Source of the DNA: an uncultured Dialister sp.
GTDB lineage: Bacteria > Bacillota > Negativicutes > Veillonellales > Dialisteraceae
Assembly (NCBI GenBank): GCA_900543165.1
Contig: UQQQ01000003.1
Coordinates: 283-64,282 of the forward strand
DNA: 64,000 nucleotides
Direction of reading: 5' to 3'
Part shown: piece by piece, positions 885 through 63,958 of the stretch
How the letters are laid out: every line of letters begins with the position of its first letter
How positions within the stretch are numbered: position 1 is the first letter of the stretch
Position numbers and translations under genes: made by a program
The notes under the pieces: model-generated
What the model saw: the letters and a program-made list of their open reading frames with translations, nothing else
Told to the model about the DNA's origin: nothing
Database searches by the model: none

Positions 885-1392
885 TGGGTCCTTTCTTTGG
901 AAAATGGAAGCACCAAGGGTGCGGTGAGAAGATTTACATCATATTATAGCATGAGGGGCAAGGCGAGGGGCGTGCCGCCCTTTGATTGCGTGCGAAAACT
1001 TCGCTTGAATGAGAAATTAGAAATGAGAAATGCGAAATGGTAGTGCTTCGCGCCGTCGTCATCTCGAGCGTAGCCGAGAGATCTTCCTTGCAGAACGGTT
1101 AGTGTACCAATTGCGCTATTTCAATCACCGCTTGCTCCTAATCCCTAATCCCTAGCCACTTATCCCTGCTTTCAAACTTGTGGTGGCGGCTTCGCTGCAA
1201 TATATATGGGGCGATGCCCGAAGGTCTGCCAAAAAGCAGGTTTCCCGTTTTGAATTTTCCAAACATTACCCGCTTGACCGCGAATGACAAAGATCGAGGG
1301 CTGCGCTCGGAATGACGATATGAGAAGGCGGCAGTCTGACGTCTCCTAGTCTCCAGTCTCCAGTCACTAGTCACTAGTCACCAGTCACTCAC
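885..1392. repeat. Mosaic intergenic repeat: GAAATTAGAAATGAGAAATGCGAAATGGT module, a partial TCGTCATCTCGAGCG module, and a heptamer array (CTAGTCT/CACTAGT)n at 1343-1392.
   Basis: The same modules recur more than 30 times in this window in both orientations. Confidence 0.8.
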
Positions 1393-1395
1393 CCC

Positions 1396-1460
1396 GAAAA
1401 AAACTTTCCTCTCCCCCCCTGACCCTGTCACTTGTGACAGGGTCAGGGGGAAAAATTTTT
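1396..1460. terminator. Bidirectional intrinsic terminator: perfect 36-nt palindrome CCCCCTGACCCTGTCACTTGTGACAGGGTCAGGGGG flanked by an A-run and a T-run.
   Basis: A GC-rich hairpin with GAAAAAAA upstream and AAAAATTTTT downstream. Confidence 0.7.
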
Positions 1461-1555
1461 GATACAATGTGTACAAGATAGGGGTAGTGTACCCTTTTTT
1501 AGAAAAAGCAGACGGTATTCTGCGTACTGCCTTTTTTCCGATGGAGGATCTTGCC

Positions 1556-3219
1556 ATGAAACGTACCATACAATCGCTATCTCTTAGTCTTTTGACAGCC
1601 CTTCTTTTTTCAGGCAGTGTGAGTGCTGCGCCGGCGCTGCCGCAGCTCGATCCGAAGGGTCCGGCGGTGCAGAAGGTGACAGATCAGGCGTCGCGCATGA
1701 GTGAGACGAACCAGCAGGTGGCATCGTACTATCAGAAGAGCCGCTACCGCACGCTGGATGCGGTGCATTCCTCAGAGGCGGAAGCTGAAAAGGGCGGGCT
1801 TGTCTTTGAAGTGAAGGAAATCCGTGTGACGCCGTCGAAATTTCTTTCCGCAGAGGAGATCCGGAAGGCCATCCATTTCAAAGGCGCAGGGCCTGCCACT
1901 GTGAAAGAGCTGACGGACATGGTGGCCCGCCTGAATGCGCTGTATCAGGAGAAGCATATCGTGACGGCGCAGGCCGTGCTGCCGCCACAGAAGGTACAGG
2001 ACGGCGTGGTCTACATCCGTCTCATTGAAGGGAAATTCGGCAAGACGGTCATCACGGGAAATCAGCGGATTTCCGAGAAGACGCTCCTCTCGCGCATCCA
2101 TGGAAGGATGGGCGAACTGGTGGACGTGGACCGGCTCGAGGATGAGCTCCGCGTGTATAATTCGACGAATACCTATCAGGTGCGGGCAGAGCTGGTGCCG
2201 GGAGAAGAGGAAGGGACCTCCGACCTCCATCTGGTGCTCGAGGAGAAGGAGAATCCGCTGACATCCTTCATTTTCACGGACAATGCGGGGCAGAAAGAGA
2301 GCGGCCGCTACCGCATCGGCGCGTATACGGAGTACCGCGGGATCGGCGGGCATGATGCGAGCCTCGCAGTGAGCCCGGTGTGGACGGAAGGCATCTGGGG
2401 CGGCTCGGTGATGTACGATACGCCATGGGGGCATCACGGGACGCGGGCGCAGATTTCCTATAGCAGAAATCTGGTGGATATCATCGACGGCACCTTCAAG
2501 GACTATGACATGAAGGCAAATTCGAATGACGCGGCGATTTCCATCACGCATCCTGTGAATATCACGCCGCTTTCCCGTGTGGACGTCTTCCTGGAAGGCC
2601 ATCGGAAATGGTCGGATACCACATACTCCGGGATGGAGCTTTCGAATAGCGCGACGCGCACGGTGAAGGCCGGACTGTCAGCGCGGAGCTTCGATGAGAA
2701 CGGGCTGTGGTTCTTCATGACCAGCGTCACCGGCTACGAAAGCGATGACCGCGTGAATGATAAGGATAACAACGGCTCATATATAGCGCCTACCTCATGC
2801 GCCGGCAGAATCTCAAAAATGACCAGTACATGCTCTACCGCCTCTACGGCCAATACACCGCCTTCGAGTCGCTGCCCTCGACGGAGCAGTTCACGCTGGG
2901 CGGCATGGGGAGTGTCCGCGGATACCAGGAAAGTATCCTTTCGGGCGATAAAGGCTGGTTCACCGGTATGGAGTACGGCTTCCCCATCAGCAGTGACCAT
3001 CAGACATGGCGAGGCTTCGTCTTCCTCGACCACGGTGTCGCATATAACAATTTCACCATCAAAACAACGAAGGACTATCTCACGAGCGCGGGCCTCGGTC
3101 TGGAGTGCAGCAAGGGCGGCTGGTATGGTAAGGCCGTCCTCGGCATCCCGCTCAAGGATTCCGGAAATATCGGAGATGCATCGCCGAGAGTGCATTTCTA
3201 TCTGCAGAGGAATGTGTAA
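1556..3219 (+). CDS. TpsB-type two-partner-secretion transporter (ShlB/FhaC/HecB family), frameshifted near 2779-2785.
   Basis: Signal peptide MKRTIQSLSLSLLTALLFSGSVSA, RBS GGAGG, POTRA-like N-terminus and a beta-barrel C-terminus (...GMEYGFPISSDHQTWRGFVFLDHGVAYNNF...VHFYLQRNV). The ORF track splits it into 1469..3247 (frame 2, Ser/Arg junk after ~2790) and 2797..3219 (frame 1). The shift sits at an ATATATA tract. Removing one TA gives a continuous ...NNGSYSAYLMRRQNLKNDQYMLYRLYGQ... Confidence 0.75.
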
Positions 3220-3566
3220 TTTTGAGGGACTGGTGACTGGTGGCTAGTAGCTAGGGATTAGTGGCTAGGGATTAGGTTTGCGATACGAGAAAACCGCTAG
3301 TTTCAAAACTCCGCGGCGCTTCATTATTTTGCGTCGCACCAACCCCTTTGAACCTCTTAAACCTATAGCGATGAGTAGCTAGGGATTAGGGATTGGGGAT
3401 TAAGAGTGACTAGTGACTGGTGACTTGAATACTGCTTTCGGGCATCGCCCCATACATATTCGCGGCGAAGCCGCCACCACAACCCTGAACCCTGAACCCT
3501 GAACCCTGAACCCTTAAACCCTTCAACCGATCTTCATGATCTTTCGACACAAAGGAGGACCATCTT

Positions 3567-10074: not shown

Positions 10075-10076
10075 AG

Positions 10077-30909: not shown

Positions 30910-31794
30910 TTGAATACTCGAATCAAAGGCATCCTGCAGTGCGCGCTGGGCGCGCTTTGCTGGGGCGCGAGCGGGATCGCGGGGCAGTACCTGCTCGTGA
31001 ATCGCGACATCGCCCCGGAGTGGTTGACTTTCTGCCGACTGTTGTCAGCAGGTGTGCTGCTCCTTTTTATTTTTTCACTGACAGGGCAAACGAGCATCTG
31101 GCCGATATGGCAAAATAAAAAAGACCGGATACGGATCCTGGTCTTTGGCATGCTGGGAATGATCTGGACGCAGTACGGCTATTTTGCTGCCATCAAGTAC
31201 AGCAATGCGCCGACGGCAACGGTTCTGGAATATCTGATGCCGATCCTCATCATCTTCTGGTACTGCCTCTCGGAGAAGCGTCTGCCGCGCCTGATGGAGA
31301 TTCTCTGTACGGCCTTTGCCTTCGTGGGTACCGTGCTCATCGCGACACATGGAAATTTTGGCAGCCTCGCGCTGTCTGAAAAGGCACTCTTCTGGGGCCT
31401 CTTGGCCGCGGTGGCGTGCGCGCTCTATACGGTAGAGCCGGTCGGCATAATCAGGAGGTACGGCGCGCCCATCGTCGTGGGCTGGGGCATGGTCATCGCG
31501 GGGCTCTCTTTCCTGCCCTTCATGGGGCTCTTTCCCTTCACCGGTATGGTGGATCTACCCGTCAGCCTGGCCTTCCTTTTCGTGGTCATCATTGGCACGA
31601 TCTGTTCCTTCGTCCTCTATCTGGGAAGTACGAAATATATTTCACCCGCTGAAGCCAGTATCATCGCAGCCTTAGAGCCACTCTCCTCCATTCTCCTCGC
31701 CTTCGCTATCTTCGGGCAGGACTTCGGCTTCTTCGAGCTTCTCGGTATGGCACTCATCATCGCTGCCGTCGGCGTGGTGAGTTTGCATCAGTGA
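30910..31794 (+). CDS. EamA/DMT-family transporter.
   Basis: 10-TM protein. Putative TTG start at 30910 with GGAGG 6 nt upstream. The upstream in-frame ORF is repeat sequence. The stop TGA is part of CAGTGACTAGTGACTGG. Confidence 0.6.
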   Translation: MNTRIKGILQCALGALCWGASGIAGQYLLVNRDIAPEWLTFCRLLSAGVLLLFIFSLTGQTSIWPIWQNKKDRIRILVFGMLGMIWTQYGYFAAIKYSNAPTATVLEYLMPILIIFWYCLSEKRLPRLMEILCTAFAFVGTVLIATHGNFGSLALSEKALFWGLLAAVACALYTVEPVGIIRRYGAPIVVGWGMVIAGLSFLPFMGLFPFTGMVDLPVSLAFLFVVIIGTICSFVLYLGSTKYISPAEASIIAALEPLSSILLAFAIFGQDFGFFELLGMALIIAAVGVVSLHQ

Positions 31795-33799: not shown

Positions 33800-34490
33800 T
33801 GGCGGGGGTTAGCCCTTGGGGCGTGCCGTTCCTTGATTACGTTTGAAAGCCTCGATTGAATGAGAAATTAGAAATGAGAAATACGAAATGGTGGTGCGGC
33901 GCATAAAAACAGGGAAGCGCCGCAGAGTATAGATAATGGCGATGCCCGAAGGTGGTATTTAGTCACCAGTCACTAGTCACTCCTAATCCCTAGTCACTAG
34001 CTACCAGTCCCCAGTCACCAGTCACTTCTCCTCATTATACCCTCTTTTCCCTTCTTGTGCTAAAATAGGATGGAATGGCAAAAGAGCTTTTGCCATTCGG
34101 TATAATCGTTTCGGCCCGGGACAGTGTCTGTTCACGGGTCAGGTGAATTCTATATCGCCAGAGATATAGAAAGCGCAGCATAGAGATGGAGTTAGAAGTT
34201 AGAAGTGGTGGTGGTGGCGGCTTCGCCGCAATTATATATAGGGTGATGCCCGCTTGTGTCTTTCAAGCCTTAAAAACAAGGTTTGAAAGCAGGGATGAGT
34301 GGCTAGGGATTAGGGATGAGAAGCAAGCGGTGATTGAAGTAGCGCAGTTAGCGCGCTGACCGTTCTGCAAGGAGGATCTCTCGGCTACGCTCGAGATGAC
34401 GATGCGCGTGAAGCGCTATTAAAACTCCGCGGTGCTCTATTATTTTTTTGCGCCGCTCCTGCATTTCTCATTTCTAATTAGCTCTCTATG
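33800..34490. repeat. Composite repeat block upstream of the McrBC-like module.
   Basis: Module A, heptamers, GGTGGCGGCTTCGCCGC hairpins and a partial TCTCGGCTACGCTCGAGATGACG module. Confidence 0.75.
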
Positions 34491-38372: not shown

Positions 38373-38879
38373 TGGCTGGTGACTAGGGACTAAGAGACCA
38401 GGAGACATCAGACGTTCTCGTATCGTCATTTCGAGCGAAGCGAGAAATCTTTCTTGTAGTCCGATAAACGACGCACTTGAGATGCATTTCCCCGCGCTCT
38501 TTCATGCCGCCAGTGCCCTATCCGCCCCTACGGGGCAGCTTCCCCTCGAGGGGAAGGCTGACGATACGAGGGAAACCTGCTATCAAGAGACTTTCGGGCA
38601 TCGCCATTATTTATACGGCGGCAAAGCCGCCACCATAAGTTTGAAAGCAGGGATGAGTAGCTAGTGACTAGTGACTGGTAGCTAGGGATTAGGTTTGCGA
38701 TACGAGAAAACCGCTAGTTTCAAATCTCCGCGGCGCTTCCATATTTTTATGCGCCGCACCACCATTTCGCATTTCTCATTTCTAATTTCTCATTCAATCG
38801 AGGCTTTCAAACGTAATCAAGGGGTGAGCCGCCCCCAGGGCTAACCCTGAACCTTGAACCTTTTTCCTCAGGAGCATCT

Positions 38880-39488
38880 ATGACCATTTACGGACCCTAT
38901 AAAGCCTCTCTCAAAGCTGTCATGGACGGCTTTGCGCAGGGCATCCGCGCCTACAGCGAGGCAGAAAAAGAGAAGACGGGAGAGATGCTTTACGAGCATC
39001 TCTCGTATCGTCTGAAAGCAGAAGACAGCATGAAGGAGAAGCTCACGCGGAAAGGATTTCCCCTCACCGCCGAGTCTGCCTGCTATGCCGTGAAGGATGC
39101 CATCGGATTCCGCATGGTGTGCCGCTTTGTGGATGACATTTATGAAAACGTCTCCCGCTTGAAAGCCCTCCCCGGTGTCGTTGTCGCAAAAGAAAAGGAC
39201 TATATCAAAAACGTCAAACCCAATGGCTACCGCAGCTATCATATGATCCTGGATGTCACCGCTCCCTATGAAGATGCGAAGGGCAGAAATCCGGGGCATT
39301 TCTTCATCGAGATCCAGCTCCGCACCATCGCGATGGACTCATGGGCGGCGCTCGAGCATGAAATGAAGTACAAGCACGAGGTGGAAAATGCGGCGCTCAT
39401 CAGCCGCGAGCTCAAGCGTTGCGCCGATGAACTCGCTTCCTGTGACCTCTCCATGCAGACGATACGGAATCTGATAAGGAAGACATGA
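38880..39488 (+). CDS. Small alarmone synthetase (RelA/SpoT synthetase-domain, RelP/RelQ-like).
   Basis: …DAIGFRMVCRFVDDIYE…NGYRSYHMILDV…FFIEIQLRTIAMDSWAALEH… 202 aa. Confidence 0.7.
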   Translation: MTIYGPYKASLKAVMDGFAQGIRAYSEAEKEKTGEMLYEHLSYRLKAEDSMKEKLTRKGFPLTAESACYAVKDAIGFRMVCRFVDDIYENVSRLKALPGVVVAKEKDYIKNVKPNGYRSYHMILDVTAPYEDAKGRNPGHFFIEIQLRTIAMDSWAALEHEMKYKHEVENAALISRELKRCADELASCDLSMQTIRNLIRKT

Positions 39489-39595
39489 CTGGTAGCTGGT
39501 GGCTGGTGACTAGTCCCTGGTCCCTAGTCCCTAGTCACTAGTCACTTCTATCCCCTAATCCCCACCCTCTTATATTTTTTACTGAGGTCAAACCT

Positions 39596-40270: not shown

Positions 40271-40592
40271 GAGTGACTGGTGACTGGGAGACTAGGAGAC
40301 TGTAGGCTCTCTCGTATCGTCATTTCGAGCGAAGCCCTCGAATCTTTGTCATTTGCGGTCCGGCAGTCGATGTTTGGAACTCCCAAATGGGAAACCTGTT
40401 ACCCACTCACTTTCGGGCATCGCCCTATTTATACTCGCGGCGCTTTATAATTTTTATGCGCCGCACCACCATTTCGCATTTCTCATTTCTAATTTCTCAT
40501 TCAATCGAGGCTTTCAAACGTAATCAAGGGGTGCCCCGCCCCAGGCTAACCCTGAACCCTTTTTGTTATCCAATGTGCCAAGGACCTCATTC

Positions 40593-41843: not shown

Positions 41844-42272
41844 AGGGCTAGTCCGTGGAGCGGGCTGTTCCCTTGATTACGGGCGAAAGCTTCGCTTGAA
41901 TTAGAAATTAGAAATGAGAAATGCGAAATGGTGGTGCGGTGCCAGATCCTTCGACTCAGTTCTCACTGTTCCGCCTTTACATGATCGAACATCCGACATT
42001 TCACTCCGCTCAGGATGACGAAATGCGCCGCGGAGTATAAATAGGGCGATGCCATGAGCTGGCATTTTAGTTACTAGTCACTGGCTACTCATTGCTACAG
42101 GTTCTATGGGTTCAACGGGTTCTGAAGGTTCTAAGGGTTCAGGTGGCGGCTTCGCCGCAGTATAAAGAAAGGCGATGCCCGAGGGTGGCATTTCAGTCAC
42201 CAGTCACTAGTCACTCCAATCCCCAATCCCTAATCCCGAATCCCTAGCTACTAATTCCTAGTCACAATCACT

Positions 42273-43358: not shown

Positions 43359-43505
43359 GGGATGGCCTTCTTTTGTAAATGATGTGTGGAAATGGATGAT
43401 TTCTATTGTAGTAGATTTTGGGGTATGGTTCAATGGGGTTCAGGGTTCAGGGTTCAGGGTTCAACGGGGACGGTGCCCCGTCTCCTAGTCACCAGTCACC
43501 AGGCA

Positions 43506-44507
43506 CTAGTCTGTCGCAAGCTCGCGGACGTTGACGGCTTCGGTTTCTTCTTCTTCGCTGAATCTCGGGTTTAGGTAGTTGACGCAGGCCCAGGCGAGGA
43601 CAGCACCGGAGATGGTGAACCAAGCGGAGAAGATCGCGCCCGGTACGACGGCTGCCGGCATGGAAGCGAAGTGGACTTTGGCAAGACCGGTGGCGAGGCC
43701 GGAATTCTGCATGCCGACTTCGACGGAGAGAGTGACGGCTTTCTTCCAAGAGAGGCCGCAGAGTTTGGCTACGGCAAGACCTAAGACATAGCCGAGCGTA
43801 TTGAAGAGGACGACGACTGCGAGGATGACGCCGAGGTTATCCATGATGGCTTTGTGGGAGGCACCGACGACGCCGGCGATGATGAGGCAGATGGTGACAG
43901 AGGAGACGGCGGGGGTGTAGTCTGTTGCGACAGCGGCTGCTTTCGGGAGGAAGTATTTCAGCGCAAGGCCGAGGCATACGGGGAGGATGACGATCTGCAG
44001 GATGGAGAGGAACATGCCGACCGGATCGAAGGCGATTTCCTTACCGATGAGGAAGAAGGTCAGCGCCGGGGTGAGGACCGGAGAAAGCAGGGTGGAGACG
44101 GAGGTCATGGTGACGGAGTACGCGAGGTCGCCTTTGCTCATATAAGTGATGACGTTGCTCGTCGTGCCGCCGGGGCAGGCGCCGAGGAGGCTGAGGCCGG
44201 CGGTGAGGCCAGGCTCGAGGGCAAAGAGTGTACCCAGTGCGAAGGCGAGGAATGGCATGATGGTGTACTGCGCGAGCGTACCGAGGAAGATGTCGCGCGG
44301 ACGGCGGAAGATGACGAGGAAGTCTTTGAGGTCAAGCGTGGTGCCCATGCCGAACATGATGACGCTGAGCAGTACGGAGAGGACGGAGACGCCCTGGACT
44401 TTGCCTAAGATCCAAAGCCAGCTAGTCGGGGTGACAAGACCGAGTACAAGAAAGACGACGGCCATGACGCCGAAATATTTCGCAAGCATTTGACAACATT
44501 TTTTCAT
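43506..44507 (-). CDS. Bile acid:sodium symporter (BASS) family transporter.
   Basis: 333 aa, ~9-10 TM. RBS AGGAG 8 nt upstream. Confidence 0.7.
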   Translation of the reverse strand: MKKCCQMLAKYFGVMAVVFLVLGLVTPTSWLWILGKVQGVSVLSVLLSVIMFGMGTTLDLKDFLVIFRRPRDIFLGTLAQYTIMPFLAFALGTLFALEPGLTAGLSLLGACPGGTTSNVITYMSKGDLAYSVTMTSVSTLLSPVLTPALTFFLIGKEIAFDPVGMFLSILQIVILPVCLGLALKYFLPKAAAVATDYTPAVSSVTICLIIAGVVGASHKAIMDNLGVILAVVVLFNTLGYVLGLAVAKLCGLSWKKAVTLSVEVGMQNSGLATGLAKVHFASMPAAVVPGAIFSAWFTISGAVLAWACVNYLNPRFSEEEETEAVNVRELATD

Positions 44508-44945: not shown

Positions 44946-45147
44946 TGAGCTGATTATACAGGACGGGATATGCATCTGTCAAGCGTTTGCAAAATATGGA
45001 AAATGGGACGTTCTCATGGGCAAGGATGAGAAATTTAGATAATTAGTGGCTAGTCACCAGTCACTCATCCCAAGCTACTCATCCCTGCTTTCAAACTGTT
45101 TCTCTTGTAGTATAATAGAAAAAACTTTTTTCGAAGGAGATACATGT

Positions 45148-46049: not shown

Positions 46050-46059
46050 GGGGGCTGCG

Positions 46060-46615
46060 CCAATTAGAAATGAGAAATGAGAAATTAGAAATGGTGGTGG
46101 CAGCTTCGCTGCATTTTAGATGATGGTATTCCCGTATCGTCAGCCTTCCCCTCGAGGGGAAGGTGCCCCGAAGGGGCGGATAAGGCACAGGCGGCATGAA
46201 AGAGAGCGGGAAGGAGCGTCTCAAGTCGACGATTTACGAAAGCACCCGAGCGCCGCTCCGCGGTCCCCCTTCCCCGATGGGGAAGGCTAAGAGGTGCGAC
46301 GCTTCGCGTCGATTTTTTATAAAGGGCGATGCCCGAAAGTGGTATTTAAGTCACTAGTCCCCAGTCCCTAGCTACTCATCCCTGCTTTGAAACGTCAGGG
46401 GTTGTGGTGGCGGCTTCGCCGCATTTTAGATGATGATACGAGGGAACCTGCTATCAAGAGCCCTTCGGGCATCGCCCTGTTTATACTCCGCGGCGATGCT
46501 GATTTTTATGCGCCGCACTACCATTTCTCATTTCTCATTCAAGCGAGGGTTTCAAACGTAATCAAAGGGCGACTCGCTCCACGGGCTAACCCTGAACCCT
46601 ATATTTTCCCCAAGG
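46060..46615. repeat. Composite repeat block (module A, full GC-hairpin module 46110-46350, heptamers, and inverted module A).
   Basis: Near-identical to 20936-21195 and 27826-28030. Confidence 0.8.
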
Positions 46616-46623
46616 AGTCTTCT

Positions 46624-48312: not shown

Positions 48313-48699
48313 AGGTTCGGGGTTAGCCCGCGGGCGCCTCGCCCATGGATGGCGGTTGAAAGCTTTGCTCGAATGAAAAATGAGAAATGGTGGTGCGGCG
48401 CATAAAAATATGGAAGCGCCGCGAAGTATACATACTGGTGATGCCCGAAGGGCTCTTGATAGCAGGTTCCCTCGTATCGTCAGCCCCCTTGCGGGGAAGG
48501 TGCCCCGAAGGGGCGGATAGGGCACAGGCGGTATGAAAGACAAATGAGGAAGAATGCCTCCCAGTCTCCCAGTCCCCTAGTCCCTAGTCACCAGTCACTA
48601 GCTACTAGCTACTCATCCCTGCTTTCAAACTTAGGGAAACGCTGAATGCAATGGGACAATAGGCAGCAGATTGGCTGCGCTTATTGTTAGTTATTCATC

Positions 48700-49671: not shown

Positions 49672-49965
49672 GGACTGGTGGCTAAGAGATTAGGAGATTA
49701 GGAGACTAAGAGACATCAGACTCTCGTATCGTCATTTCGAGCGTAAGCGAGAAATCTTCCTTGCAGACCGAAAAACGAAGGATGTGTGAAAGTAGAAATA
49801 CGTAGCACAAAGGCGTCGTTTCCCTGCAGTGCCCATGTGATACTGACGCAGTGCAAGAAAGACCCTCGGCTGCGCTTTCGATGACGACGGCGCGAAGCGC
49901 TATCAAAATTCCGCGGCGCTTAGATCCTTCGACTCAGTTCTCCTATTTCAGATAAGCCATTATTT

Positions 49966-50129
49966 AAGGAAACGCTGATTCAATCGCAGAGTCAGCTTCC
50001 ACAAGAATTTTTATACATAGCTTCGTCATAACCTTCCTTAAATAGCTCGCTATTCGCGTCAGGTTATTCCTTGCTATGCCTAAAAATTCAAGAGTAAAAT
50101 CTGACAATGATTTAATCAGTGTTTCCTTA
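49966..50129. mobile_element. MITE (~164 bp) with 21-bp imperfect TIRs AAGGAAACGCTGATTCAATCG / AAGGAAACACTGATTAAATC.
   Basis: A second full copy is at 51521-51684. A right half is at ~53075-53146, a left part at 27769-27836, and a 47-bp hairpin mini-version at 52623-52669. Confidence 0.7.
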
Positions 50130-50304
50130 ACATACGACGTTTTTCTCCGTTCAGGATGACGAAATGCGCCGTACCACCCCGCTGAACCTATAGAACCCTT
50201 TGAACCTATAGAACCTATAGAACCCGCTCCCCCTCTTTTGCAAACAATCAAAGAGCGCCCTGCCCGCGGGCTAATCCTGAACCCATTTTTAGTGAGGTAT
50301 ACCC

Positions 50305-51462: not shown

Positions 51463-51520
51463 AAAGGGTTCAGGTTGGCGGGTTCAGGGTGGGGTTACGC
51501 CAATTAGAAATGAGAAATTG

Positions 51521-51684
51521 GGGAAACGCTGATTAAATCGCAGAGTCAGATTCTACAAGAATTTTTATACATAGCTTCGTCATAGCCTTCCTTAAATAGC
51601 TCGCTATTCGCGTCAGGTTATTCCTCGCTATGCATAAAAATTCAAGAGTAAAATCTGACAACGATTTAATCAGTGTTTCCTTAG
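51521..51684. mobile_element. MITE copy 2.
   Basis: GGGGAAACGCTGATTAAATCGCAGAGTCAGATTC…GATTTAATCAGTGTTTCCTTA. Confidence 0.7.
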
Positions 51685-52072
51685 AAATGCGAAATGAAGG
51701 TGGCGGCTTCGCCGCAAGTATATATGGGGCGATGCCTGAAGGCTTTATGAGCGGATGCTATTCTCGTATCGTCAGCCTTCCCCTCTAGGGGAAGGTGCCC
51801 CGAAGGGGCGGATAGGGTGACTATGGTATGAAAAACAGATGAGAAAAGCGGAGGGGTGCGCGGCACATACGGGAAAAACGTGCGCCTCTGACCGCGAATG
51901 ACAAAGCTTTCTCGCTTCGCCCGAAATGACGATGCGGGAGTCTCCCCGTCTCTTAATCTCCTAGTCACCAGTCACTAGTCCCTGGCTACTCATCCCTGTT
52001 TTCAAACTTAGCCCCAGAGGCTAACCCTGAACCCGCTATCCCCGTCCACCCATTTTCAAAAAGGAGAAAATC

Positions 52073-52576: not shown

Positions 52577-52622
52577 GAGCAGAGATTAGTGACTGGTGAC
52601 TGGTAGCTAGTGACTGGGGATT

Positions 52623-52669
52623 AAGGAAACGCGGATTCAATCGAACAACGATTGAATCCGTGTTTCCTT
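52623..52669. mobile_element. Mini-MITE / solo TIR pair forming a perfect hairpin.
   Basis: AAGGAAACGCGGATTCAATCGAACAACGATTGAATCCGTGTTTCCTT. Confidence 0.6.
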
Positions 52670-52769
52670 AGAATTAGAGACTAGGAGACATCAGACGGTC
52701 AGACATTTATTTCTAATCCCTAATCCCCCGTCCCCCGTCCCTGGTCACTATATTCCCCTCATAAATCTC

Positions 52770-52990
52770 CTTGACAAGCCTGTTCGTATAGAGTATTCTT
52801 TTGGTCGTAGAGAAAGGGCGGAGCAGTATCCCCGGGAGCTGTATCCGAAAAAGCCCTGACGCCGCACGACAAGTATCGCTTGGATTGTCACTGACCGAGA
52901 CGAATGTACAAGAGCTGCATCCTCTTGGGATGCCTTTTTTATGGCTGCACGCAAAGAGCCGCATTCCTTTTGGAGTGCGGCTTTTTTTAT
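52770..52990 (+). ncRNA. Candidate structured leader or sRNA: promoter (TTGACA…TATTCT), a closed stem GGTCGT…ACGAC, then two tandem intrinsic terminators.
   Basis: GCATCCTCTTGGGATGCCTTTTTTAT and AGCCGCATTCCTTTTGGAGTGCGGCTTTTTTTAT. The class is not recognised. Confidence 0.35.
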
Positions 52991-53294
52991 AATTAGGAAT
53001 GAGGAATTAGGAGGAATGAGGAATTAGGAATGGTGGTACGGCGCATCATCATATGAAGGCGCCGAAGTTTTAAAGAAATACTGATTTCTCGCCATGTATA
53101 AAACTTCAAGAGTAAAATCTGATAACGATTTAATCAGTGTTTCCTTAAGAAAATATCCATTGCTTTTGGCATCGCCCGGTTTTATATTCGCGACGCTTCT
53201 AAATTTTATGCGTCGCACCTTCATTCCTCATTCCTAATTTATGCCATTCGGCATGGATGACAAATGATGCGTTCTTTTTTGAAAGGAAATCCTC

Positions 53295-54539: not shown

Positions 54540-54544
54540 AAGAA

Positions 54545-54885
54545 GGGGTCAGGGTTAGCCCCTAGGGCGCAGCGTCCCCTTGATTACGATTGAAAGCCTC
54601 GCTTGAATGAGAAATTAGAAATGAGAAATGCGAAATGGTGGTGCGGCGCATAAAAGTATAGAAGCGCCGCGAAGTAAAGATAGTGGCGATGCCCAAAGGT
54701 AGTATTTACTCACCAGCCTCAAGTGACTGGTGACTTGAATACTACTTTCGGGCATCGCCCTATATATACTCGCGGCGAAGCCGCCACCACCATTTCTAAT
54801 TTTTCATTTCTAATTCCTCATTTGGGCAGAGCTTTCACACGCAATCAAAGGACGGTACGCCCGAGCGGATAACCCTGAACCTGCA
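54545..54885. repeat. Pair of module-A copies in inverted orientation (~140-bp arms) around a heptamer core.
   Basis: GGTTAGCCCCTAGGGCGCAGCG…GCGATGCCCAAAGG // CCTTTCGGGCATCGCC…GGATAACCCTGAACC. Confidence 0.8.
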
Positions 54886-54886
54886 C

Positions 54887-55624: not shown

Positions 55625-55668
55625 GATGGAGGCCTTTCTGACGATGACTGGTGGCTGGTGACTGGTGA

Positions 55669-56601
55669 CTAGTGACTGGGGATTAGGAAATGAGAAGTCA
55701 GCTCCTCGATCTGATTTCTCCAATTATCCGTATCGTACTCGATCTGCTCCGACCAGCGGGAGACGGCGCGGAAGGGATCTTTTGTGTGCACGGCCTCAAG
55801 GTAGATGAAGAGCGTACTCTCCTCGGCAAACCGGGCGAGTACGGAGACGGGAACGGCGGGCTGATCCCAGTCTTCGGGGCTGGCAAGGTCCAGCTGGCGA
55901 TAGAGGATGTATTGGTAGATGGCATCCCAGAATCCCGCAGGGACTTTGGGCGGGTGCGCCTTGGCCTCGTTCACCAGCTCTTCGGCGTGCGCCTGCATCC
56001 ATGCGAGGTCCCTTGTCCACGCGGCATCGATGGGCTCCGTGCCTTCCATCGCGCGCAGCATGGCGGATACGGATTTCATGGAAAGGTCGAGGGTGAAATG
56101 GCATTCTTTGTCGGAAAGGGACAGAAGCAGTTCATCCATGAGCTGGGAAAATGTCACGGTCATGCCGTCATACCCGGCTGCTTCCGGATCCTGAAGATCG
56201 AATGTGAGGGGCAGGTGCTCGGCGATCTGTTCTACCGTGCGCTCACAGCAGAGCCCCGTACCCGAGAGCTCGGCGCCGCATGGATATTTGTAGAAACGCG
56301 GGTGCTCCCGGCAGATGTCGCAGAGCGCATCCTCGCCGAGCTCCAGTACCAGACGGCAGAGGCCGGCTTTGTTCAGGAAATGGCAGTAGCCTTTCTCGTT
56401 CAGCGTAAAACAGGTGGAACCATCCTCCGACGTTCCCATCCATTGCCGGATCTCCTGACACAGCGGGCTCTTGAGCGTTTGGTAATAGTCCTTCGTGTCT
56501 TCGTCGATGTCGATCTCCCATGTCTGGCAGCAGGTGTGCCGGCAAGCGCCTGCCTTGCAGCGGAAGTCAGGGAAGAATGTGGGGAAAATGGTCAGGGACA
56601 T
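55669..56601 (-). CDS. YkgJ/FliB-like cysteine-cluster protein (CxxxC…CC).
   Basis: …FRCKAGACRHTCCQTWEID… The C-terminal FLIPSH* is encoded by a CCTAATCCCCAGTCACTAG repeat. Confidence 0.45.
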   Translation of the reverse strand: MSLTIFPTFFPDFRCKAGACRHTCCQTWEIDIDEDTKDYYQTLKSPLCQEIRQWMGTSEDGSTCFTLNEKGYCHFLNKAGLCRLVLELGEDALCDICREHPRFYKYPCGAELSGTGLCCERTVEQIAEHLPLTFDLQDPEAAGYDGMTVTFSQLMDELLLSLSDKECHFTLDLSMKSVSAMLRAMEGTEPIDAAWTRDLAWMQAHAEELVNEAKAHPPKVPAGFWDAIYQYILYRQLDLASPEDWDQPAVPVSVLARFAEESTLFIYLEAVHTKDPFRAVSRWSEQIEYDTDNWRNQIEELTSHFLIPSH

Positions 56602-56885
56602 GGGGATGCCTTCTTTCAAAAAATAAGGGTTCAGGGTTGTGGTGGCGGCTTTGCCGCAGTATAAATAATGGCGATGCCAGAAAGTCTCTTGATAGCAGGC
56701 TTCCCTCGTATCATCAGCCTTCCCCTCGAGGGGAAGGTGCCCCGAAGGGGCGGATAGGGGGTGACTTTGGTAGGAAAGATGAATGACCGAAAGAGCCCTA
56801 ATGACTGGAGTGCCAGCTCATGGCACTGCCATTTCTCATGCAAGCGAGACTTTCAACTGTCATCAAGGACGGCACGCCCCAGGGG

Positions 56886-57296
56886 CTAAATTAACTTTCC
56901 TTCCAGATGATCCATCTCGTGCTGGATGACTTCTGCGACGAAGCCCTTGAATTTCTTTTTCTTCACGCGGAAGAGCTCATCGCGATACTTGATCTCGATT
57001 TCCTCATAGCGCGTGGTCTTTCGCTCGCCGGAAAGGGAGAGGCAGCCCTCTTCGGCCTCATAGGGACGGGCAGCGGAGAGGCGCTCGGGATTGTACATGA
57101 CGACGATATCCTTCCCCTGACGGAAGGCGATGATGGCTTTCGCAAAGCCGATCATGTTCGCAGCGAGCCCCGCGCAGGTGTCTCTATGGGCGGCGAGGGT
57201 GTCTTTCAGGTCTTCGGCGATGGCCTTGTCCTCGCGAGCGGCGGGCGCGGCCTTCTGCTGAAGAAATATGATGTCTTTCACAATGTCTCTTTTCAT
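56886..57296 (-). CDS. def: Peptide deformylase.
   Basis: GLAANMIG, EGCLS, HEMDHLEG motifs. The track's long N-terminal extension lacks an RBS. Confidence 0.7.
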   Translation of the reverse strand: MKRDIVKDIIFLQQKAAPAAREDKAIAEDLKDTLAAHRDTCAGLAANMIGFAKAIIAFRQGKDIVVMYNPERLSAARPYEAEEGCLSLSGERKTTRYEEIEIKYRDELFRVKKKKFKGFVAEVIQHEMDHLEGKLI

Positions 57297-57431: not shown

Positions 57432-57992
57432 ATGGCAAAGGTTATTGTAATTTCCGGTCATCCGCATCTGGAACGTTCCATCATGAACAAGACCATTCTG
57501 GAAGAATTGAAAAAGGCTGCCGAAGGCGGTGCATCGATCGCGATCGATGATATCGCAGAGAAGGGCTGCTGCCATTTGGATGTGGCAGCGGAGCAGGCTC
57601 TTCTGAAAGAAGCGGACACCATCGTCTTCCAGTTCCCTGTCTACTGGTTCAATGCACCGGCCATGCTGAAGCACTGGTACGAAGAAGTCTTTACTCCGGG
57701 CTTCGCACACGGCGAAGGTGCGATCGGGCTTAAGGGTAAAAAGCTCATCATCTCTGCGACGGCCGGCGCTCCGGACGGCGCGTACAGCACCGCCGGCATG
57801 GGCCATACGCTCGATGAATTCTTCGATAACTTCTATGTCATGGCGGCTATGACCGGTATGGAAATGGCCAAGCCGATCCTAACCTATGGCGCGATGTTCA
57901 TCCCGGGCGTTTCCACCGAGGCTGACAAAGAGAAGCTCGTCGCGCTCGCCAAGGAGCATGCGAAGAAGCTGCTTGAGGAAATCGGGGACTAG
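57432..57992 (+). CDS. Flavodoxin-like fold NAD(P)H dehydrogenase (quinone) / KefF-like.
   Basis: MAKVIVISGHPHLERSIMNKTILEEL… RBS AAGGAA. TAG stop inside GGGGACTAGGGACTGG. Confidence 0.65.
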   Translation: MAKVIVISGHPHLERSIMNKTILEELKKAAEGGASIAIDDIAEKGCCHLDVAAEQALLKEADTIVFQFPVYWFNAPAMLKHWYEEVFTPGFAHGEGAIGLKGKKLIISATAGAPDGAYSTAGMGHTLDEFFDNFYVMAAMTGMEMAKPILTYGAMFIPGVSTEADKEKLVALAKEHAKKLLEEIGD

Positions 57993-58056
57993 GGACTGGT
58001 AGCTGGTGACTAGTGACTAGGATTACTTTTTCTGTTCTTACACGGATTTCCCAACC

Positions 58057-58137
58057 AAAAAGTCCCGCTGCTTCGTAAGAAGCGGCGGGACTTTTTGGTC
58101 TGAAGTCTGAAGTCTGAAGTCTCAAAGTCTCGGTGTC
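58057..58137. terminator. Bidirectional terminator followed by an (AGTCTGA)4 heptamer array.
   Basis: AAAAAGTCCCGCTGCTTCGTAAGAAGCGGCGGGACTTTTTGG, then GTCTGAAGTCTGAAGTCTGAAGTCTCAAAGTCTC. Confidence 0.75.
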
Positions 58138-58197
58138 CAGAAATCCTAATCCCCAGCTATTAATCCCTAGCCACCAGTCACTAGTCCCCAGTCCCCA

Positions 58198-58698
58198 TCA
58201 CAGCGAGAATCCGTCTGTGGCATCGCCCGGTTTATCGAGACGGCGGGCGACGTCTTCGTAGCATTCACCCAGATGGAAGACGAGGACATTCAGCGTGTCG
58301 CGGATGGTCTCGGGGTCGAAGTGTTCGTTCGTGTAGGTCACGCAGACATCGAGGAAGACGTTGTCATCGCTGCCGATCGTGTATTTCACGATGGCATGCT
58401 CCCCATTCAGCTTGTTCAGGAAAGGGACGAAGGTCTTTCTGGCCGGGCCCTTCGGCGCGGTGCCGAGGTGGATGCGGATCAGGGTGTACATGCTGTTGTC
58501 CGTGATGACAGCGCAGACCAGCCGGTGCTTGCCCGCAGGCAGCGCGGTCATGAAGACGACCGTGTCGTAGGAGTCATGTGCATCTTGACGGCGGAAGAAA
58601 TTCAGCCCTTCCTTCTTGAGGTAGGACTCGAATGCATCTGCTTTGAGATTTTTTTTGAAATTGCCTTTCGTCGGGAATGGAATCGTATTGTCAGCCAT
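58198..58698 (-). CDS. Hypothetical protein (YbjN-like?).
   Basis: MADNTIPFPTKGNFKKNLKADAFESYLKKEGL… Start chosen for the AAAGG RBS. Confidence 0.45.
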   Translation of the reverse strand: MADNTIPFPTKGNFKKNLKADAFESYLKKEGLNFFRRQDAHDSYDTVVFMTALPAGKHRLVCAVITDNSMYTLIRIHLGTAPKGPARKTFVPFLNKLNGEHAIVKYTIGSDDNVFLDVCVTYTNEHFDPETIRDTLNVLVFHLGECYEDVARRLDKPGDATDGFSL

Positions 58699-59302: not shown

Positions 59303-59649
59303 GTTAGGGGAATGGTTCAGGGTTAGCCCGTGGGGTGTGTCGCCCTTTGATTGTGAATGAAACTTTGTCTGAATGAGGAATTAGGAATGAGGAATTAGGA
59401 ATGGTGGTGCGGCGCATAAAAATCAGAAGCGCCGCGGAGTATAAATAGTGGCGATGCCCAAAGGCGGTATTCAAGTCACCAGTCACTAGTCACTAGTCAC
59501 TCCTAATCCCTAATCCCCAGCCACTCATCCTTCATCCCCGCTTTCAAACGTAGTTTGTGGGCGTCCCCTGAATCCATAAATCCATTTCTTTCGAAGAACG
59601 TATACCGTAGGATAGAAGCATTGCCTGAAGGCAAAGAGGAGGAATTCGT

Positions 59650-60666: not shown

Positions 60667-60669
60667 GGG

Positions 60670-61520
60670 AATCAGTGACTGGTGACTAGTGACTGGTGAC
60701 TGGGAGATGGCAGACTCTTGTATCGTCATTTCGAGCGTAAGCGAGAAATCTTTGTCATTTGCGGTCAGAAGTACGATGTCAGAAAATCCCAAACGGGAAA
60801 CCTGTTATCCTCCAGACTTCGGGCATCGCCCTTTATAAAAATCGACGCGAAGCGTCGCTCCGCCTAAGCCTTCCCCATGGCGGGAAGGACTTTGGACTTC
60901 TCCCTCCTTTCTTTGGAAGGAGGTGCCCCGAAGGGGCGGAGGTTGGCTCCCGCAGCGGGATGAGACGAAATGTGAGACAGCCCGTCCTCCCGTTTCGTCA
61001 TCCCGAGCGCAGCCGAGGGATTTTTCTTGTCGCAGCGGTGTACGGCATGCATGCGGCTGCTCAGAAAACCGCTCAGGCGCTCATCTCACACTCTCCGTTT
61101 CACCGGTGTGCAAGGGAAGATTTCTCGCTTCGCTCGAAATGACAATACGGGGAAGGCGATACTCTCATTTTCCGCCCTTGAGACGTATTTCCTCTCTCTT
61201 TCATACCGCCGGTGCCCTATCCGCCCCTACGGGGCACCTTCCCCTCGAGGGGAAGGCTGATGATGCGAGAATACCATCATCTAACATGGCGGCGAAGCCG
61301 CCAACATAAGTTCGAAAGCAGGGATGATTAGTAGCTAGGGATTAGGAGCCTCGAGTGACTAGTGACTTGTGACTGGTGACTTAAATGCCACTTTCGGGTA
61401 TCGCTATTATTTTTACTCGCGGCGCTTCCTTATTTTTATGCGCCGCACCAGCACTCCTAACTCCTCACTGGCGAGCAAAGCTTTCATCCCCGATCAAAGG
61501 ACAGCACGCCCCACGGGCTA
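60670..61520. repeat. 850-bp composite repeat block between aroG and tyrA.
   Basis: TCGTATCGTCATTTCGAGCG modules, GC-hairpin modules in both orientations, heptamers, module A. Confidence 0.8.
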
Positions 61521-61593
61521 ACCCTTGAACCCGCTCCCTATCATATATTACAATGACCATAGCAACACAATTTCAATAGAAAAGAGCACACAC

Positions 61594-62463
61594 ATGGACA
61601 GCAATCACGACTTTAGCCACTTTACGATCGCCGTCATCGGCCTTGGACTGATGGGCGGCTCCTTCGCCAAACGTTTTAAGGCCATCGGCAGCCGCGTCAT
61701 CGGGATCAACCGCACGACCAGTGTCGCGCAGGAAGCGCTTCGGATGGGGATCGTGGATTCGATTTCCGAAGAGGATCTGAAAGACGCAGACATCGTCATT
61801 TTCTGCACGCCGGAAAAGGGGACGATGGCATTCATTGAAAAGAAACTCGGCCTTTTGAAGAAGGATGCCGTGCTGACAGACATCGCCGGCGTGAAGAATG
61901 ATTTCGCGGAAAAGATCCAGGCGAAGCTCCCGGAAGGGATGGATTTCATCAGTGGGCATCCGATGTGCGGGCATGAGGGCGCAGGACTCTCGCAGTCGGA
62001 CGCAGAGATTTTCCTCGGTGCGAACTACGTCATCATCCCGCAGGAGGGAAACAGTGCCTCGCACATCGCGCTCATCGAGGAGATGGCGCGCGCTCTCGGC
62101 TGCCGGCATGTGCCGAAGGTGACGGCCGATGCGCATGACCGCGCGATCGCTTACACGAGCGATCTCACGCATGTCATCGCGACGGCGCTCATTCAGAGCG
62201 AGTCCTATAATAAAGAAACGAAGTATTTCATGGGCGGCTCTTTCCGCGATGAGACACGCGTGGCGGATATCAATGACCGTCTGTGGACATCGCTTTTCCT
62301 GTCGAACCGGCAGAAGCTGCTGGATGAGATCGACCGCTTCAGCGAGAAGCTGCAGGTGCTGCGGGATGCGATCGAGAGAGAGGACAGCGAGGGGATGGAG
62401 GATTTTCTGAATGAGGCAGGCAGACGAAGGAGGGAACTCATGCATGAAGACAGTGAAGGTTGA
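61594..62463 (+). CDS. tyrA: Prephenate dehydrogenase.
   Basis: …FTIAVIGLGLMGGSFAKR… Rossmann fold plus TyrA C-terminal domain. Confidence 0.7.
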   Translation: MDSNHDFSHFTIAVIGLGLMGGSFAKRFKAIGSRVIGINRTTSVAQEALRMGIVDSISEEDLKDADIVIFCTPEKGTMAFIEKKLGLLKKDAVLTDIAGVKNDFAEKIQAKLPEGMDFISGHPMCGHEGAGLSQSDAEIFLGANYVIIPQEGNSASHIALIEEMARALGCRHVPKVTADAHDRAIAYTSDLTHVIATALIQSESYNKETKYFMGGSFRDETRVADINDRLWTSLFLSNRQKLLDEIDRFSEKLQVLRDAIEREDSEGMEDFLNEAGRRRRELMHEDSEG

Positions 62464-63511
62464 TCTGGGAAGTGATTCGTATCGGATCGAGATCGGGCGC
62501 GGTCTTCTTTCAAGCGTCGGTGAAAAGCTGAAGCAGCTGACGAAGGCGGAGAAGATCGCCGTCGTGACGGATGACCATGTGCGCCGCATCTATGGAGAAA
62601 GGATCAGAGAGGTCCTCAAGGGAGCCGGCTTTGATGTGAAAGTGATCGCCATACCGGCAGGGGAGGCCAGCAAGAATCTCCGTGTCTTCGGTGATGTACT
62701 GGAGGCGCTTGCCGGCTTTGATATGTCAAGAAGCGATGCGCTCGTGACACTCTCCGGCGGCGTCCCGGGGGATCTCGGGGGATTTGCCGCCGCCTCCTAC
62801 ATGAGAGGCATTGATTTCTTCCAGATCCCGACCACCATCCTGGCGCAGATCGACAGCTCTGTCGGCGGCAAGGTCGCTGTCGACCTTCCGAGCGGGAAGA
62901 ATCTGGCAGGCGCGTTCTATCAGCCCAAGGGCGTCTTCATCGATCCAGACCTGCTCTCCACCCTGCCGCCCCGCTATGTGCATGACGGTCTGGCTGAAGC
63001 GGTGAAGTACGGATGCATCGGCGACCGTGAGCTTTTCGAGCTCTTCGAGTCCATTGAGACGGAGGAAGATCTGGAGAAGAACATCGAGGAAATCATCCTG
63101 CGGAGCGTCCTGCAGAAGACGAAATTCGTAGAAGAAGACCAGTACGACAATGGCAGCCGGCAGATGTTGAACTTCGGTCACACCATCGGGCATGCCATCG
63201 AGCGTTACTTCCATTACAATACCTACACCCACGGCGAAGGCGTCGCGATCGGCATGAGTCTCCTCTCTGCGCAGAGTGAGAAGCTCGGCTATACAGAGCG
63301 CGGATGCACCGACCGCCTGCGCGCCGTCCTGAAGAAGCTCGCTCTTCCGACCGCCATCGGTGTTTCGGCAAAGGAGCTCATCCCGCATGTGCTGCACGAT
63401 AAGAAACGCCGCGGTAAAGAAATCACCTTAGTCGTCATGAAAGAAATCGGCCGCGCTGAACTCGTGAAAGTCCCGACAGAAGAGCTCGCCGACTGGATCG
63501 TGACGGAATAG
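62444..63511 (+). CDS. aroB: 3-dehydroquinate synthase.
   Basis: MKTVKVDLGSDSYRIEIGRG… RBS AAGGAGG. Overlaps the tyrA end. Confidence 0.75.
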   Translation: MKTVKVDLGSDSYRIEIGRGLLSSVGEKLKQLTKAEKIAVVTDDHVRRIYGERIREVLKGAGFDVKVIAIPAGEASKNLRVFGDVLEALAGFDMSRSDALVTLSGGVPGDLGGFAAASYMRGIDFFQIPTTILAQIDSSVGGKVAVDLPSGKNLAGAFYQPKGVFIDPDLLSTLPPRYVHDGLAEAVKYGCIGDRELFELFESIETEEDLEKNIEEIILRSVLQKTKFVEEDQYDNGSRQMLNFGHTIGHAIERYFHYNTYTHGEGVAIGMSLLSAQSEKLGYTERGCTDRLRAVLKKLALPTAIGVSAKELIPHVLHDKKRRGKEITLVVMKEIGRAELVKVPTEELADWIVTE

Positions 63512-63958
63512 AAGAAGGGGTTTAGGGTTCAGGGTTGTGGTGGCGGCTTCGCCGCAAATATAAATTCGGCGCTTTGCGCCGTACCACTTAGCCTTCCCCA
63601 TTGGGGAAGGGGGACCGCGCTAGCGGTGGATAGGGTACCGCCGTTATCCGCACACTGACACGAACGCATTTTCGGCTGATTCATTTACCTTTCATGCCGC
63701 TTGTGCCCTATCCGCCTCGCTTTGCTCGGCACCTTCCCCGCAAGGGGGGCTGACGATACGAGGGAAACCTGCGATCAAGAGACCTTCGGGCATCGCCCTA
63801 TTTATACTTTGCGGCGCTTCTGATTTTTATGCGCCGCACCACCACTCCTAACTCCTAACTCCTCACTTCTAACTTAGAGAGCAAAGCTTTCATCCCCAAT
63901 CAAGGGGCGGCACGCCCCGAATCCCTAAACCTCGAACCCTTTCCTCCAAGGAGTACCA

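Follow-up and report, generated by a model that had tools for sequence, protein, structure and literature searches.

Gene spacers of a gut Dialister are packed with short repeats that look like nested, recombining selfish DNA

The spacers between genes in a 64-kb stretch of DNA from a gut species of Dialister (hereafter the window, meaning all 64,000 nucleotides analysed) are filled with blocks of short non-coding repeats, in which palindromic modules (named here A, B, C, D, F, G and M) are nested in one another and interleaved with arrays of 7-nucleotide units. Their appearance is that of selfish DNA, nested and recombining, and not of a single functional RNA or a single BOX-like element. The explanation that we favour, and hold to be somewhat probable, is that the intergenic DNA has been colonised by lineage-specific, nested non-autonomous elements and remodelled by slippage and short-homology recombination, their orientation being filtered by selection.

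The repeats are genuine. Exact look-ups of its proteins assign the window to an uncultured Dialister sp. of the human gut, and its T-box leader and ShlB/ESPR two-partner secretion locus are indicative of a diderm Firmicute. Self-BLAST of the window delimited 42 repeat blocks totalling 11.5 kb (18%); hidden Markov models (HMMs) of the modules together with period-7 tracts covered 15.6%, which merged into 41 blocks of 10.7 kb (16.8%). The original prediction, made from the letters of the window, had put the share at 20–25%, above the 16–18% measured, and had described nearly every intergenic region as built from repeats, which was borne out: with the adhesin locus excluded, at least one module or array lies in 31 of the 31 spacers of 100 bp or more. 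Every block falls outside long open reading frames (ORFs), with none at all within 3567-18198. The sequence GGCGATGCCCGAA has 36 matches in the window (3.55 expected by chance) and the D hairpin GGTGGCGGCTTCGCCGC has 18 (0.05 expected), while period 7 prevails among the tandem repeats reported by Tandem Repeats Finder (~65 arrays). The GC content of the window is ~55%.

The modules are also repeated beyond the window and are thus not window-local duplications. The B core (pattern GGTGCCCCNNAGGGGCGGATAGGG, in a genome collection) occurs in more than 110 stretches, nearly all from eight Dialister genomes that also share the heptamer units of the window, one of them a 2.52-Mb isolate genome. Two window proteins, when looked up, led to more than 1,000 blocks of the assembly collection; in the closest loci genes are ~94–95% identical, and one metagenome contig is 100% identical across 6.9 kb. 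The counts given below come from the window and from loci selected by such patterns, with a further set of 26 conspecific contigs.

An assembly or chimera artefact of metagenome-derived sequence is hardly credible. Short-read contigs of metagenome-assembled genomes (MAGs) do often break in these repeats, and one block in the species L096 contains a gap of N; the blocks nevertheless recur, with small allelic differences, in 26 independent conspecific assemblies, among them polished contigs 2.38 and 2.46 Mb in length, and are carried by the isolate genome of a sister species as well. As to the breaks, the short-read MAG contigs L020, L034, L040, L054, L056 and L064 end within tens of bases of a B arm, and a 272-bp "heptamer array" in L096 (6223-6494) turned out to be a run of N. 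Several contigs (L016, L022, L024, L028, L032 and others) of the GTDB representative "Fusicatenibacter saccharivorans" (CAVBQN) carry Dialister genes at 90–96% identity to the window along with Dialister repeats; this bin is mislabelled or contaminated.

Close inspection of the blocks reveals at least four unrelated sequence families and several families of heptamers, so that the "single family" of the original prediction does not hold; its modules A to E are all present, and to them we add F, G, the M element and a small atom, J1. Module A (~160 nt) is put together from heptamers and three small hairpins, in the order (GGGTTCA)n, GGGTTAGCCC, a small hairpin, TTGAAAGCCTCGCTTGAATGAG, (GAGAAAT/TAGAAAT)n, a hairpin GGTGGTGCGGCGC...GCGCCGC, TATAAAT and the atom GGGGCGATGCCCGAAGG (J1). 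Inverted pairs of A do exist; they had been called frequent, with ~140-bp arms, and long pairs proved rare, the only clean one lying at 54546-54881; the pair at 52997-53240 has ~77-bp arms that enclose an M fragment. Module B (~215 nt) is an inverted pair of 43-nt two-hairpin arms around a ~60-nt core, each arm reading GCCTTCCCC-N4-GGGGAAGG-T-GCCCC-GAA-GGGGC-GGATAGGG; the arm pair is followed by a GC hairpin with T5-6 and then by J1, and the doublet folds as a long helix with side hairpins. All 232 copies of the B arm (196 distinct) in the window and loci are intergenic, with near-invariant stems and variable loops; between left and right arms, hairpin 2 is changed at two pairs, both of them fully compensatory. 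The window contains ~8 full doublets and ~7 single arms, and only 21 HMM hits cover both arms at full length across all the sequence examined.

Module C (~182 nt) has inverted ends, each with a hairpin TCGTCAT-NNN-GAGCGNAGCGA-NNN-ATC (R2). Module F combines one C-type end with a tail that reaches J1, and module G is a C-type hairpin with a ~55-nt loop that sits, in either orientation, in the loop of A's hairpin (a4); both are relatives of C. D is a 17-nt hairpin, the short-loop form of A's hairpin, and together with J1 (GGGCGATGCCCGAA) makes up the short palindromic atoms that recur at module junctions. The hairpin units (B arm, R2, D/a4 and J1) are found in both orientations, joined by recurrent linkers, namely the K motif (CATCCCTGCTTTCAAACTT), J2 and AT-rich spacers. 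The order of modules varies from block to block: H1-F-A is the sole recurrent one, and B, C, G and M may stand anywhere inside. The heptamers fall into H1 (GTGACTR, GGGACTR, GGGATTA, GTAGCTA), H2 (GGGTTCA), H3 (GAGAAAT and variants) and GAAGTCT; ~55–65 period-7 tracts of at least four unit families total 2.0 kb and enter genes only at stop codons. Arrays of 8-mers (GAGATTAG, TAGTCTAT) and 9-mers (GGGTTCAAC, GAACCTATA) are found in the same blocks, at 49686-49713, 58981-59018, 23925-23963 and 50184-50224.

The blocks of the window are as follows, with arrowheads giving the orientation of modules and arrays.

962..1390: A> (GAGAAAT heptamers), H1<, D>, F>, H1<, between divergent genes
3225..3522: H1> array holding the stop codon of a ShlB-type gene, A< fragments, H1>, D<, (TGAACCC)6
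18302..18751: C> (inverted R2-hairpin doublet), full B> with hairpin and T5 tail
18991..19155: copy of C>
20626..21285: A> F> H1< D> B> H1<x14, the canonical A-F-H1 cassette with an inserted B, from the 5' side of LarA to the stop codon of a cupin gene
21675..21966: fragment of A>, B> (right half), and H1<x9 extending over the stop codon of a Lon-like gene
23967..23983 (plus strand): solo D hairpin
24446..24652: B< and D<, with a T run after the D hairpin on the minus strand
25075..25349: left half of A>, D-like hairpin, G>, J1, H1<, K motif
25752..25901 (minus strand): A<, its a1 (GGGTTCA) end 15 nt upstream of the unique promoter-like box TGCTATAAT
27768..28100: half an M fused to B>, then H1<
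29323..29736: H1>x6, C>, G> in the a4-hairpin loop of a partial A<
30596..30879: canonical cassette H1> F< A<, the whole YdjC-EamA spacer, with the YdjC stop TGA in the first heptamer
31790..32063: H1>, B<, D<; L001 and L122 lack the B core, and L123 and L124 have a duplicated B
32869..33282: D> B> F> H1<x8, up to the MlaD stop codon
33806..34027: A> then H1< arrays; some strains have an additional 205-bp unit
34169..34479: A> fragment, D>, right part of C>, A< fragment
38372..38868: H1> from a stop codon, F<, left arm of B<, D<, H1>, A<, and (TGAACCY)n abutting the ribosome-binding site (RBS) of a RelA_SpoT-family gene
39486..39549: H1> switching to H1< (a palindromic array), filling the spacer, with the stop TGA inside; alleles of 93, 100 and 107 bp
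40272..40558: cassette H1> F< A< between a response-regulator gene and its histidine-kinase gene
41844..42247: A> with G in the a4 loop, GGGTTC-type 9-mers, D>, J1, H1<x8
43433..43511: (GGGTTCA)4-5 and H1< between two minus-strand genes; alleles of 126, 133, 140 and 154 bp
45044..45101: H1< and K motif
46060..46598: H3>, D>, full B>, J1, H1<, K, D>, and A< abutting the RBS of an ABC gene; in L122 B is lost and the J1-H1-K-D segment is inverted
48314..48636: A> from 2 nt past the stop codon of the ABC gene, left arm of B>, H1<, K
49673..50178: H1-type 7- and 8-mers, C>, and G> interrupted by M (49965-50130) at TTAA/TA, between bioW and an aminotransferase gene
51467..52011: GGGTTCA units, M inside a GAGAAAT array, D>, J1, left arm of B>, F>, H1<, K
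52581..52673: H1> straight after a stop codon, then a mini-M consisting of the two inverted ends only (52617-52670)
52707..52749 (minus strand): H1< array
52990..53242: partial A copies as an inverted pair, with arms of ~77 bp separated by half an M
54546..54881: A> <A as a clean inverted pair (arms of ~160 and 145 bp); the flanking genes are convergent, and each has an a1 end toward it
55643..55682 (plus strand): H1> array
56626..56889: GGGTTCA units, D>, J1, left arm of B>, left part of A<
57984..58022 (plus strand): H1> at the stop codon of a flavodoxin-like gene
58094..58198: (GAAGTCT)n, up to 56 bp longer in other strains, then H1< ending at a stop codon
58786..59072: A>, octamer and heptamer arrays, H1<
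59314..59568: A>, H1<x7, K
60673..61525: aroF-tyrA spacer, H1> F< [B< tail, B fragment, C<, left arm of B<, D<, K, H1>] A<
63516..63953: aroB-aroA spacer, GGGTTCA units, D>, B<, and A< abutting an RBS

Signs of mobility come from M, a non-coding and nearly perfect palindrome of ~156 bp found at ~42 loci in 824 kb (4–5 of them in the window). The terminal inverted repeat (TIR) RGGAAACGCTGATTNAATCG stands at both ends of 19 full copies, and most copies have Y-TA-R on both flanks, which marks M as a true miniature inverted-repeat transposable element (MITE) inserting at TA (YTAR) sites. The copy at 49965-50130 splits a G module; set beside the uninterrupted G at 29580-29671, this site fits a duplication of TA or TTAA as the target of M. 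In the loci examined we found no parent insertion sequence (IS) for M, that is, neither a long TIR pair around an ORF nor a multi-copy ORF. Relative to genes, both orientations are seen for B, C, G and M.

The ends of the blocks are strongly polar, as counted across 477–493 called genes. At stop codons the H1 arrays present GTGACTR on the sense strand in a ratio of 85:5, and at 5' ends they follow the same outward rule (23:2); the stop codon itself lies inside an array in 49 of 477 genes. Since GTGACTR units provide TGA or TAG in all three frames, the 3' ends of genes can be overrun at little cost. Module A turns its a1 end toward the gene at 5' ends (73:4) and at 3' ends (36:9), and directly beyond this end lie unique TGnTATAAT promoters, RBSs or terminators. 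Between co-directional genes A and F are mostly anti-oriented (56:14 and 30:9, respectively), with 10:7 for B. From this polarity we infer that blocks may expand up to an essential signal and that their orientation may be filtered, with the C-rich strand, which lacks Shine–Dalgarno-like and GTG motifs, lying upstream of starts. The C-rich strand of the end arrays always reads toward the gene, and the idea that it might load Rho was set aside: arrays ahead of the internal genes of operons would then do harm, and most are too short.

Such polarity could equally be expected of host-serving regulatory cassettes, an alternative that we consider unlikely. The arrangement stop-(GTGACTR)n-F-A-RBS would then be a standard intercistronic spacer, acting as a terminator, an insulator or a stabiliser of 5'/3' untranslated regions, with slippage tuning expression by strain. 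Besides the orientation of A, F and H1, this is favoured by the hypervariability of the arrays, the abutment of A on the RBS of several genes, an excess of terminator-like hairpins (53 found versus 18.5 expected) and the placement of cassettes between genes that are normally co-transcribed (the response regulator and histidine kinase at 40272-40558, bioW-bioF and aro); cassettes in these likely operons must be transcribed through or tolerated. Counting against it, A has no consensus (sigma-70-like) promoter in either direction, which led us to reject a promoter in this module, and promoter-like sites are unenriched (11 found versus 10 expected, mostly in unique DNA). The terminator-like hairpin and T run claimed for B are present: CGACGCTTCGCGTCG is followed by T5-6 at 21135, 21818, 27989, 18704 and 46298, and so is D at 24635 and 32046 on the minus strand. 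The terminator role did not survive, and was rejected, since in co-directional gene pairs the tail-bearing copies of B are randomly oriented (7 co-oriented versus 10 anti-oriented, p = 0.63), a further point against the cassettes, as is the absence of covariation in B.

Comparison across strains and species, which bears on the same alternative, shows that the content of the blocks is far from fixed. Among 26 conspecific contigs, each of 23 spacers has near strain-unique alleles (5–16 per spacer); multiples of 7 bp account for 70 of the 172 indel events, with 53 measuring exactly 7 bp, and heptamer expansions reach 42–56 bp. Larger events at the strain level include a 205-bp H2-D-J1-F-H1 unit bounded by CCTAATCCCTA heptamer repeats (block 33806..34027), deletions of the B core between its own two terminal hairpins, tandem duplications of B, in strain L127 a 54-bp deletion between TTTTCAAA repeats (block 51467..52011), and the single inversion, in L122 (block 46060..46598); such events end in repeats that the two sides share. 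Taken together, the indels and the larger events indicate that present change is dominated by slippage and by short-homology (or site-specific) recombination. Gene content specific to single strains was seen past the histidine-kinase gene, on the side of Fe-ADH or Mem_trans (L121:13238-16808 and L130:1766-2671); both the 3.4-kb insertion in L121 and the replacement of Fe-ADH and SBF in L130 consist of genes for Sel1-repeat proteins, not of mobile-element genes.

Between species whose genes are ~90–95% identical, orthologous spacers differ in their module strings: B is single here and in tandem elsewhere, C replaces F in some, and A may be present or absent. The aroF-tyrA spacer illustrates this, as the bracketed ~560 bp of the window, which lies between two copies of the J1 atom TTCGGGCATCGCC, is absent from species L096. 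The same spacer measures 927 bp here versus 106 bp in Allisonella histaminiformans (L137; AroF ~85% identical), whose compact aro operon, the one locus examined, has no repeats. A relative with 92% AroF identity and a GC content of 47.6% (L139) carries homologous repeats with diverged heptamer units (GCGTAAT, TAAACCC and GTAGCTA), which points to homogenisation, or concerted evolution, within each lineage. Both the free variation among strains and the different modules, or none in Allisonella, in the same spacer of related species weigh against regulatory cassettes.

These results uphold the original prediction in part, namely the picture of modular, nested, non-coding elements in both orientations that are still changing, given M with its TA flanks inside G and the variation among species and strains. 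Where an "active non-autonomous element family" had been proposed, the nested modules of mobile type stand; the change seen among strains is mostly 7-bp slippage and recombination, not visible cut-and-paste transposition.

A bolder version of the cassette idea, which we rate as rather improbable, is that stop-(GTGACTR)n-F-A-RBS has been domesticated into a genome-wide standard spacer, which would supply frame-independent stops, shield flanking genes from signals for transcription and translation inside the block and, through slippage, make most gene boundaries contingency loci. If this were true, each strain would have its own expression set-up, and the parallel with the short tandemly repeated repetitive (STRR) sequences of cyanobacteria would point to a general mechanism that makes or maintains 7-nt arrays.

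That the modules, chiefly B, might be genes for a family of structured non-coding RNAs is very improbable. B does fold into the long helix described above, modestly better than shuffled sequence on the minus strand (z = -2.7) and less so on the plus strand (z = -1.7). Rfam, however, gave no family match for the repeats at any threshold used (gathering or E<=1), the only matches being the T-box and, on a terminator in unique DNA, miRNA hits that were spurious; the RNAalifold covariation term was +1.17, with nearly all pairs invariant and any double change confined to 4 of 46 pairs. Half copies and both orientations are common besides, and the B core is deleted in some strains. The structured-RNA reading put forward for the repeats is therefore not sustained.

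We likewise weighed a single REP/REPIN–RAYT system (repetitive extragenic palindromes, their doublets forming hairpins, and the REP-associated tyrosine transposase), in which one domesticated Y1 (HUH) transposase would move every module and the heptamers would be by-products. B and C indeed are inverted doublets of conserved hairpin units, present as singlets and doublets, and the conserved motifs GGATAGGG and TCGTCA flank the hairpins. The B-arm core (GCCCCGAAGGGGC then GGATAGGG) is also found in Oscillospiraceae and Geobacteraceae MAGs (L110:1754-1807 and L041:3667-3712), where hairpin 1 is altered in a compensatory way (CCTCTCCC/GGGAGAGG and CCTTCTCC/GGAGAAGG); this suggests that the B arm belongs to a widespread REP-like type of hairpin. 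L041 also carries a pair of ACCAGTC heptamers.

The search for a cognate transposase, of the IS200/IS605, RAYT or any other kind, was unsuccessful in the ~1.2 Mb examined, which is partly redundant and biased to B-containing regions. A regular-expression scan of this sequence for HUH/Y motifs found no match, clustering of multi-copy ORFs in the loci examined returned orthologues only, and tblastn with an E. coli RayT query gave a single hit (E = 0.16) inside uvrA; no RAYT lies next to the out-group copies in L110 and L041. Two composite blocks found no match in the plasmid collection. More than one enzyme would be required for a MITE that duplicates TA together with hairpins of three or more unrelated types, and B and C have no defined insertion site, so that one REPIN–RAYT system for all modules appears distinctly improbable.

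Returning to the colonisation of spacers by non-autonomous elements, we propose that new copies would arise through enzymes acting in trans: M would putatively be moved by a DDE-type transposase, and B and C by an enzyme that recognises hairpins. The elements would preferentially land in, or recombine with, existing elements, perhaps because only there are they harmless. Replication slippage of 7 bp would reshape the arrays within blocks, while deletions, duplications and inversions, with their ends in the numerous short palindromes and arrays that blocks share, would reshape whole blocks. Selection would purge copies that harm promoters, RBSs, terminators or reading frames, which may be why a block begins right at one gene's stop codon and reaches precisely to the promoter or RBS of the following gene, its ends strongly biased in orientation; any role as terminator or insulator would be secondary and local.

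Several points weigh against this proposal. The evidence on density is drawn only from the window and pattern-selected loci, and the ~1.2 Mb searched holds neither transposase nor RAYT. Target-site duplications were found in no module but M, and there is no clean insertion event among strains, all large changes being readable as recombination. Finally, the 3–4:1 orientation preference of the A-F-H1 cassette and its sites in presumed operons (response regulator–histidine kinase, bioW-bioF and aro) could be explained equally well by function. Mobile elements would be favoured by an IS ending in RGGAAACGCTGATT, or by a RAYT gene that is present once and has hairpins of B or C on its flanks.

This Dialister species is very common in human gut metagenomes and, if the window is typical, about one-sixth of its genome would consist of short non-coding repeats, an unusually heavy load for a bacterium of 2.4–2.5 Mb. 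The repeats fragment short-read assemblies and MAGs and are a likely source of spurious ORF calls; they also offer dozens of strain-tracking markers resembling variable-number tandem repeats. They make a tractable case for the co-evolution of REPIN-like hairpins, MITEs and microsatellite arrays, for how much stuffing of intergenic regions and operon spacers is harmless, and for why 7-nt arrays arise independently in distant phyla.

The window has further features in its genes and unique DNA. At 1619-18198 a ShlB-type transporter gene is followed by a repeat-free giant adhesin region, led by ESPR and spread over several overlapping plus-strand frames, which has no Pfam hits besides ESPR. A perfect hairpin with a 20-bp stem and T runs on both strands, lying in unique DNA at 24684-24731, looks like a bidirectional terminator and accounts for the spurious miRNA hits. 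The gene pair at 34514-38372 is McrBC-like (an AAA_5 ATPase and a DUF2357/PDDEXK_7 nuclease) and probably forms a restriction or defence system. The T-box leader (44691-44933, minus strand, 132 bits) stands upstream of an SBF-family (bile acid:sodium symporter-type) gene at 43506-44507, an unusual cargo for a T-box. The Mem_trans (auxin-efflux-type) gene at 45274-46049 is split in two in the window, L118 and L135; as it is intact (312 aa) in most other strains, the split form is a frameshift allele or a pseudogene.

In searches of the literature on repeats, MITEs or REPs of Dialister and the Negativicutes we found no description of this system, and its likenesses lie with systems of other bacteria. 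The bacterial interspersed mosaic elements (BIMEs) of E. coli and the Neisseria intergenic mosaic elements (NIMEs) are intergenic mosaics of a few palindromic units and linkers, in both orientations, clustered between genes. By description, the Dialister blocks resemble them in just these respects; they differ in sequence and host phylum, have many more module types, include heptamer arrays in the mosaic and are far denser (16–18% of the window).

Correia elements of Neisseria are MITEs with a TA target, and other MITEs derive from IS630 or IS5. M is like these in its size, its non-coding nature, TIRs, TA (YTAR) flanks, many copies and nesting, and unlike them in being a near-perfect palindrome over its whole length and a minor part of the repeat load.

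The heptanucleotide STRR sequences were reportedly described, with small dispersed repeats, in heterocystous cyanobacteria by Mazel in 1990 and Elhai in 2008. As in that system, several families of tandem 7-nt units in the window keep to intergenic DNA, where small mobile repeats are interspersed with them and many arrays come directly after the 3' end of a gene; CCCCAGT, which we take to be the STRR1 unit, occurs in the window (e.g., 21908-21921). In contrast to STRRs, these arrays belong to a diderm Firmicute from the human gut, mix variants of their units imperfectly and are strictly oriented to gene ends, and strain-level 7-bp polymorphism is documented here.

The BOX elements of Streptococcus pneumoniae, at ~100 copies, have a fixed boxA-(boxB)n-boxC order. 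The original prediction's "BOX-like" is apt as an analogy of architecture, the only level compared, since both systems are modular, intergenic, hairpin-forming and non-autonomous; it fails in that many unrelated modules combine here variably, with no fixed A-Bn-C order.

REPINs are mobilised by RAYTs (Bertels and Rainey 2011, PMC3116915, where small dispersed repeats are cited too). B and C resemble them in form, as inverted doublets of a conserved extragenic hairpin that also occur as singlets and tandem clusters and insert next to or into one another. Unlike REPINs, they come without a RAYT in the sequence examined, their units are 43 nt with two hairpins instead of ~20-nt REPs, and the doublet spacer is ~60–110 nt with extra motifs that include a terminator-like hairpin. 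The system is best read as a dense mosaic of REPIN/BIME-like, MITE and STRR-like kinds, rather than as a relative of BOX or an RNA family.

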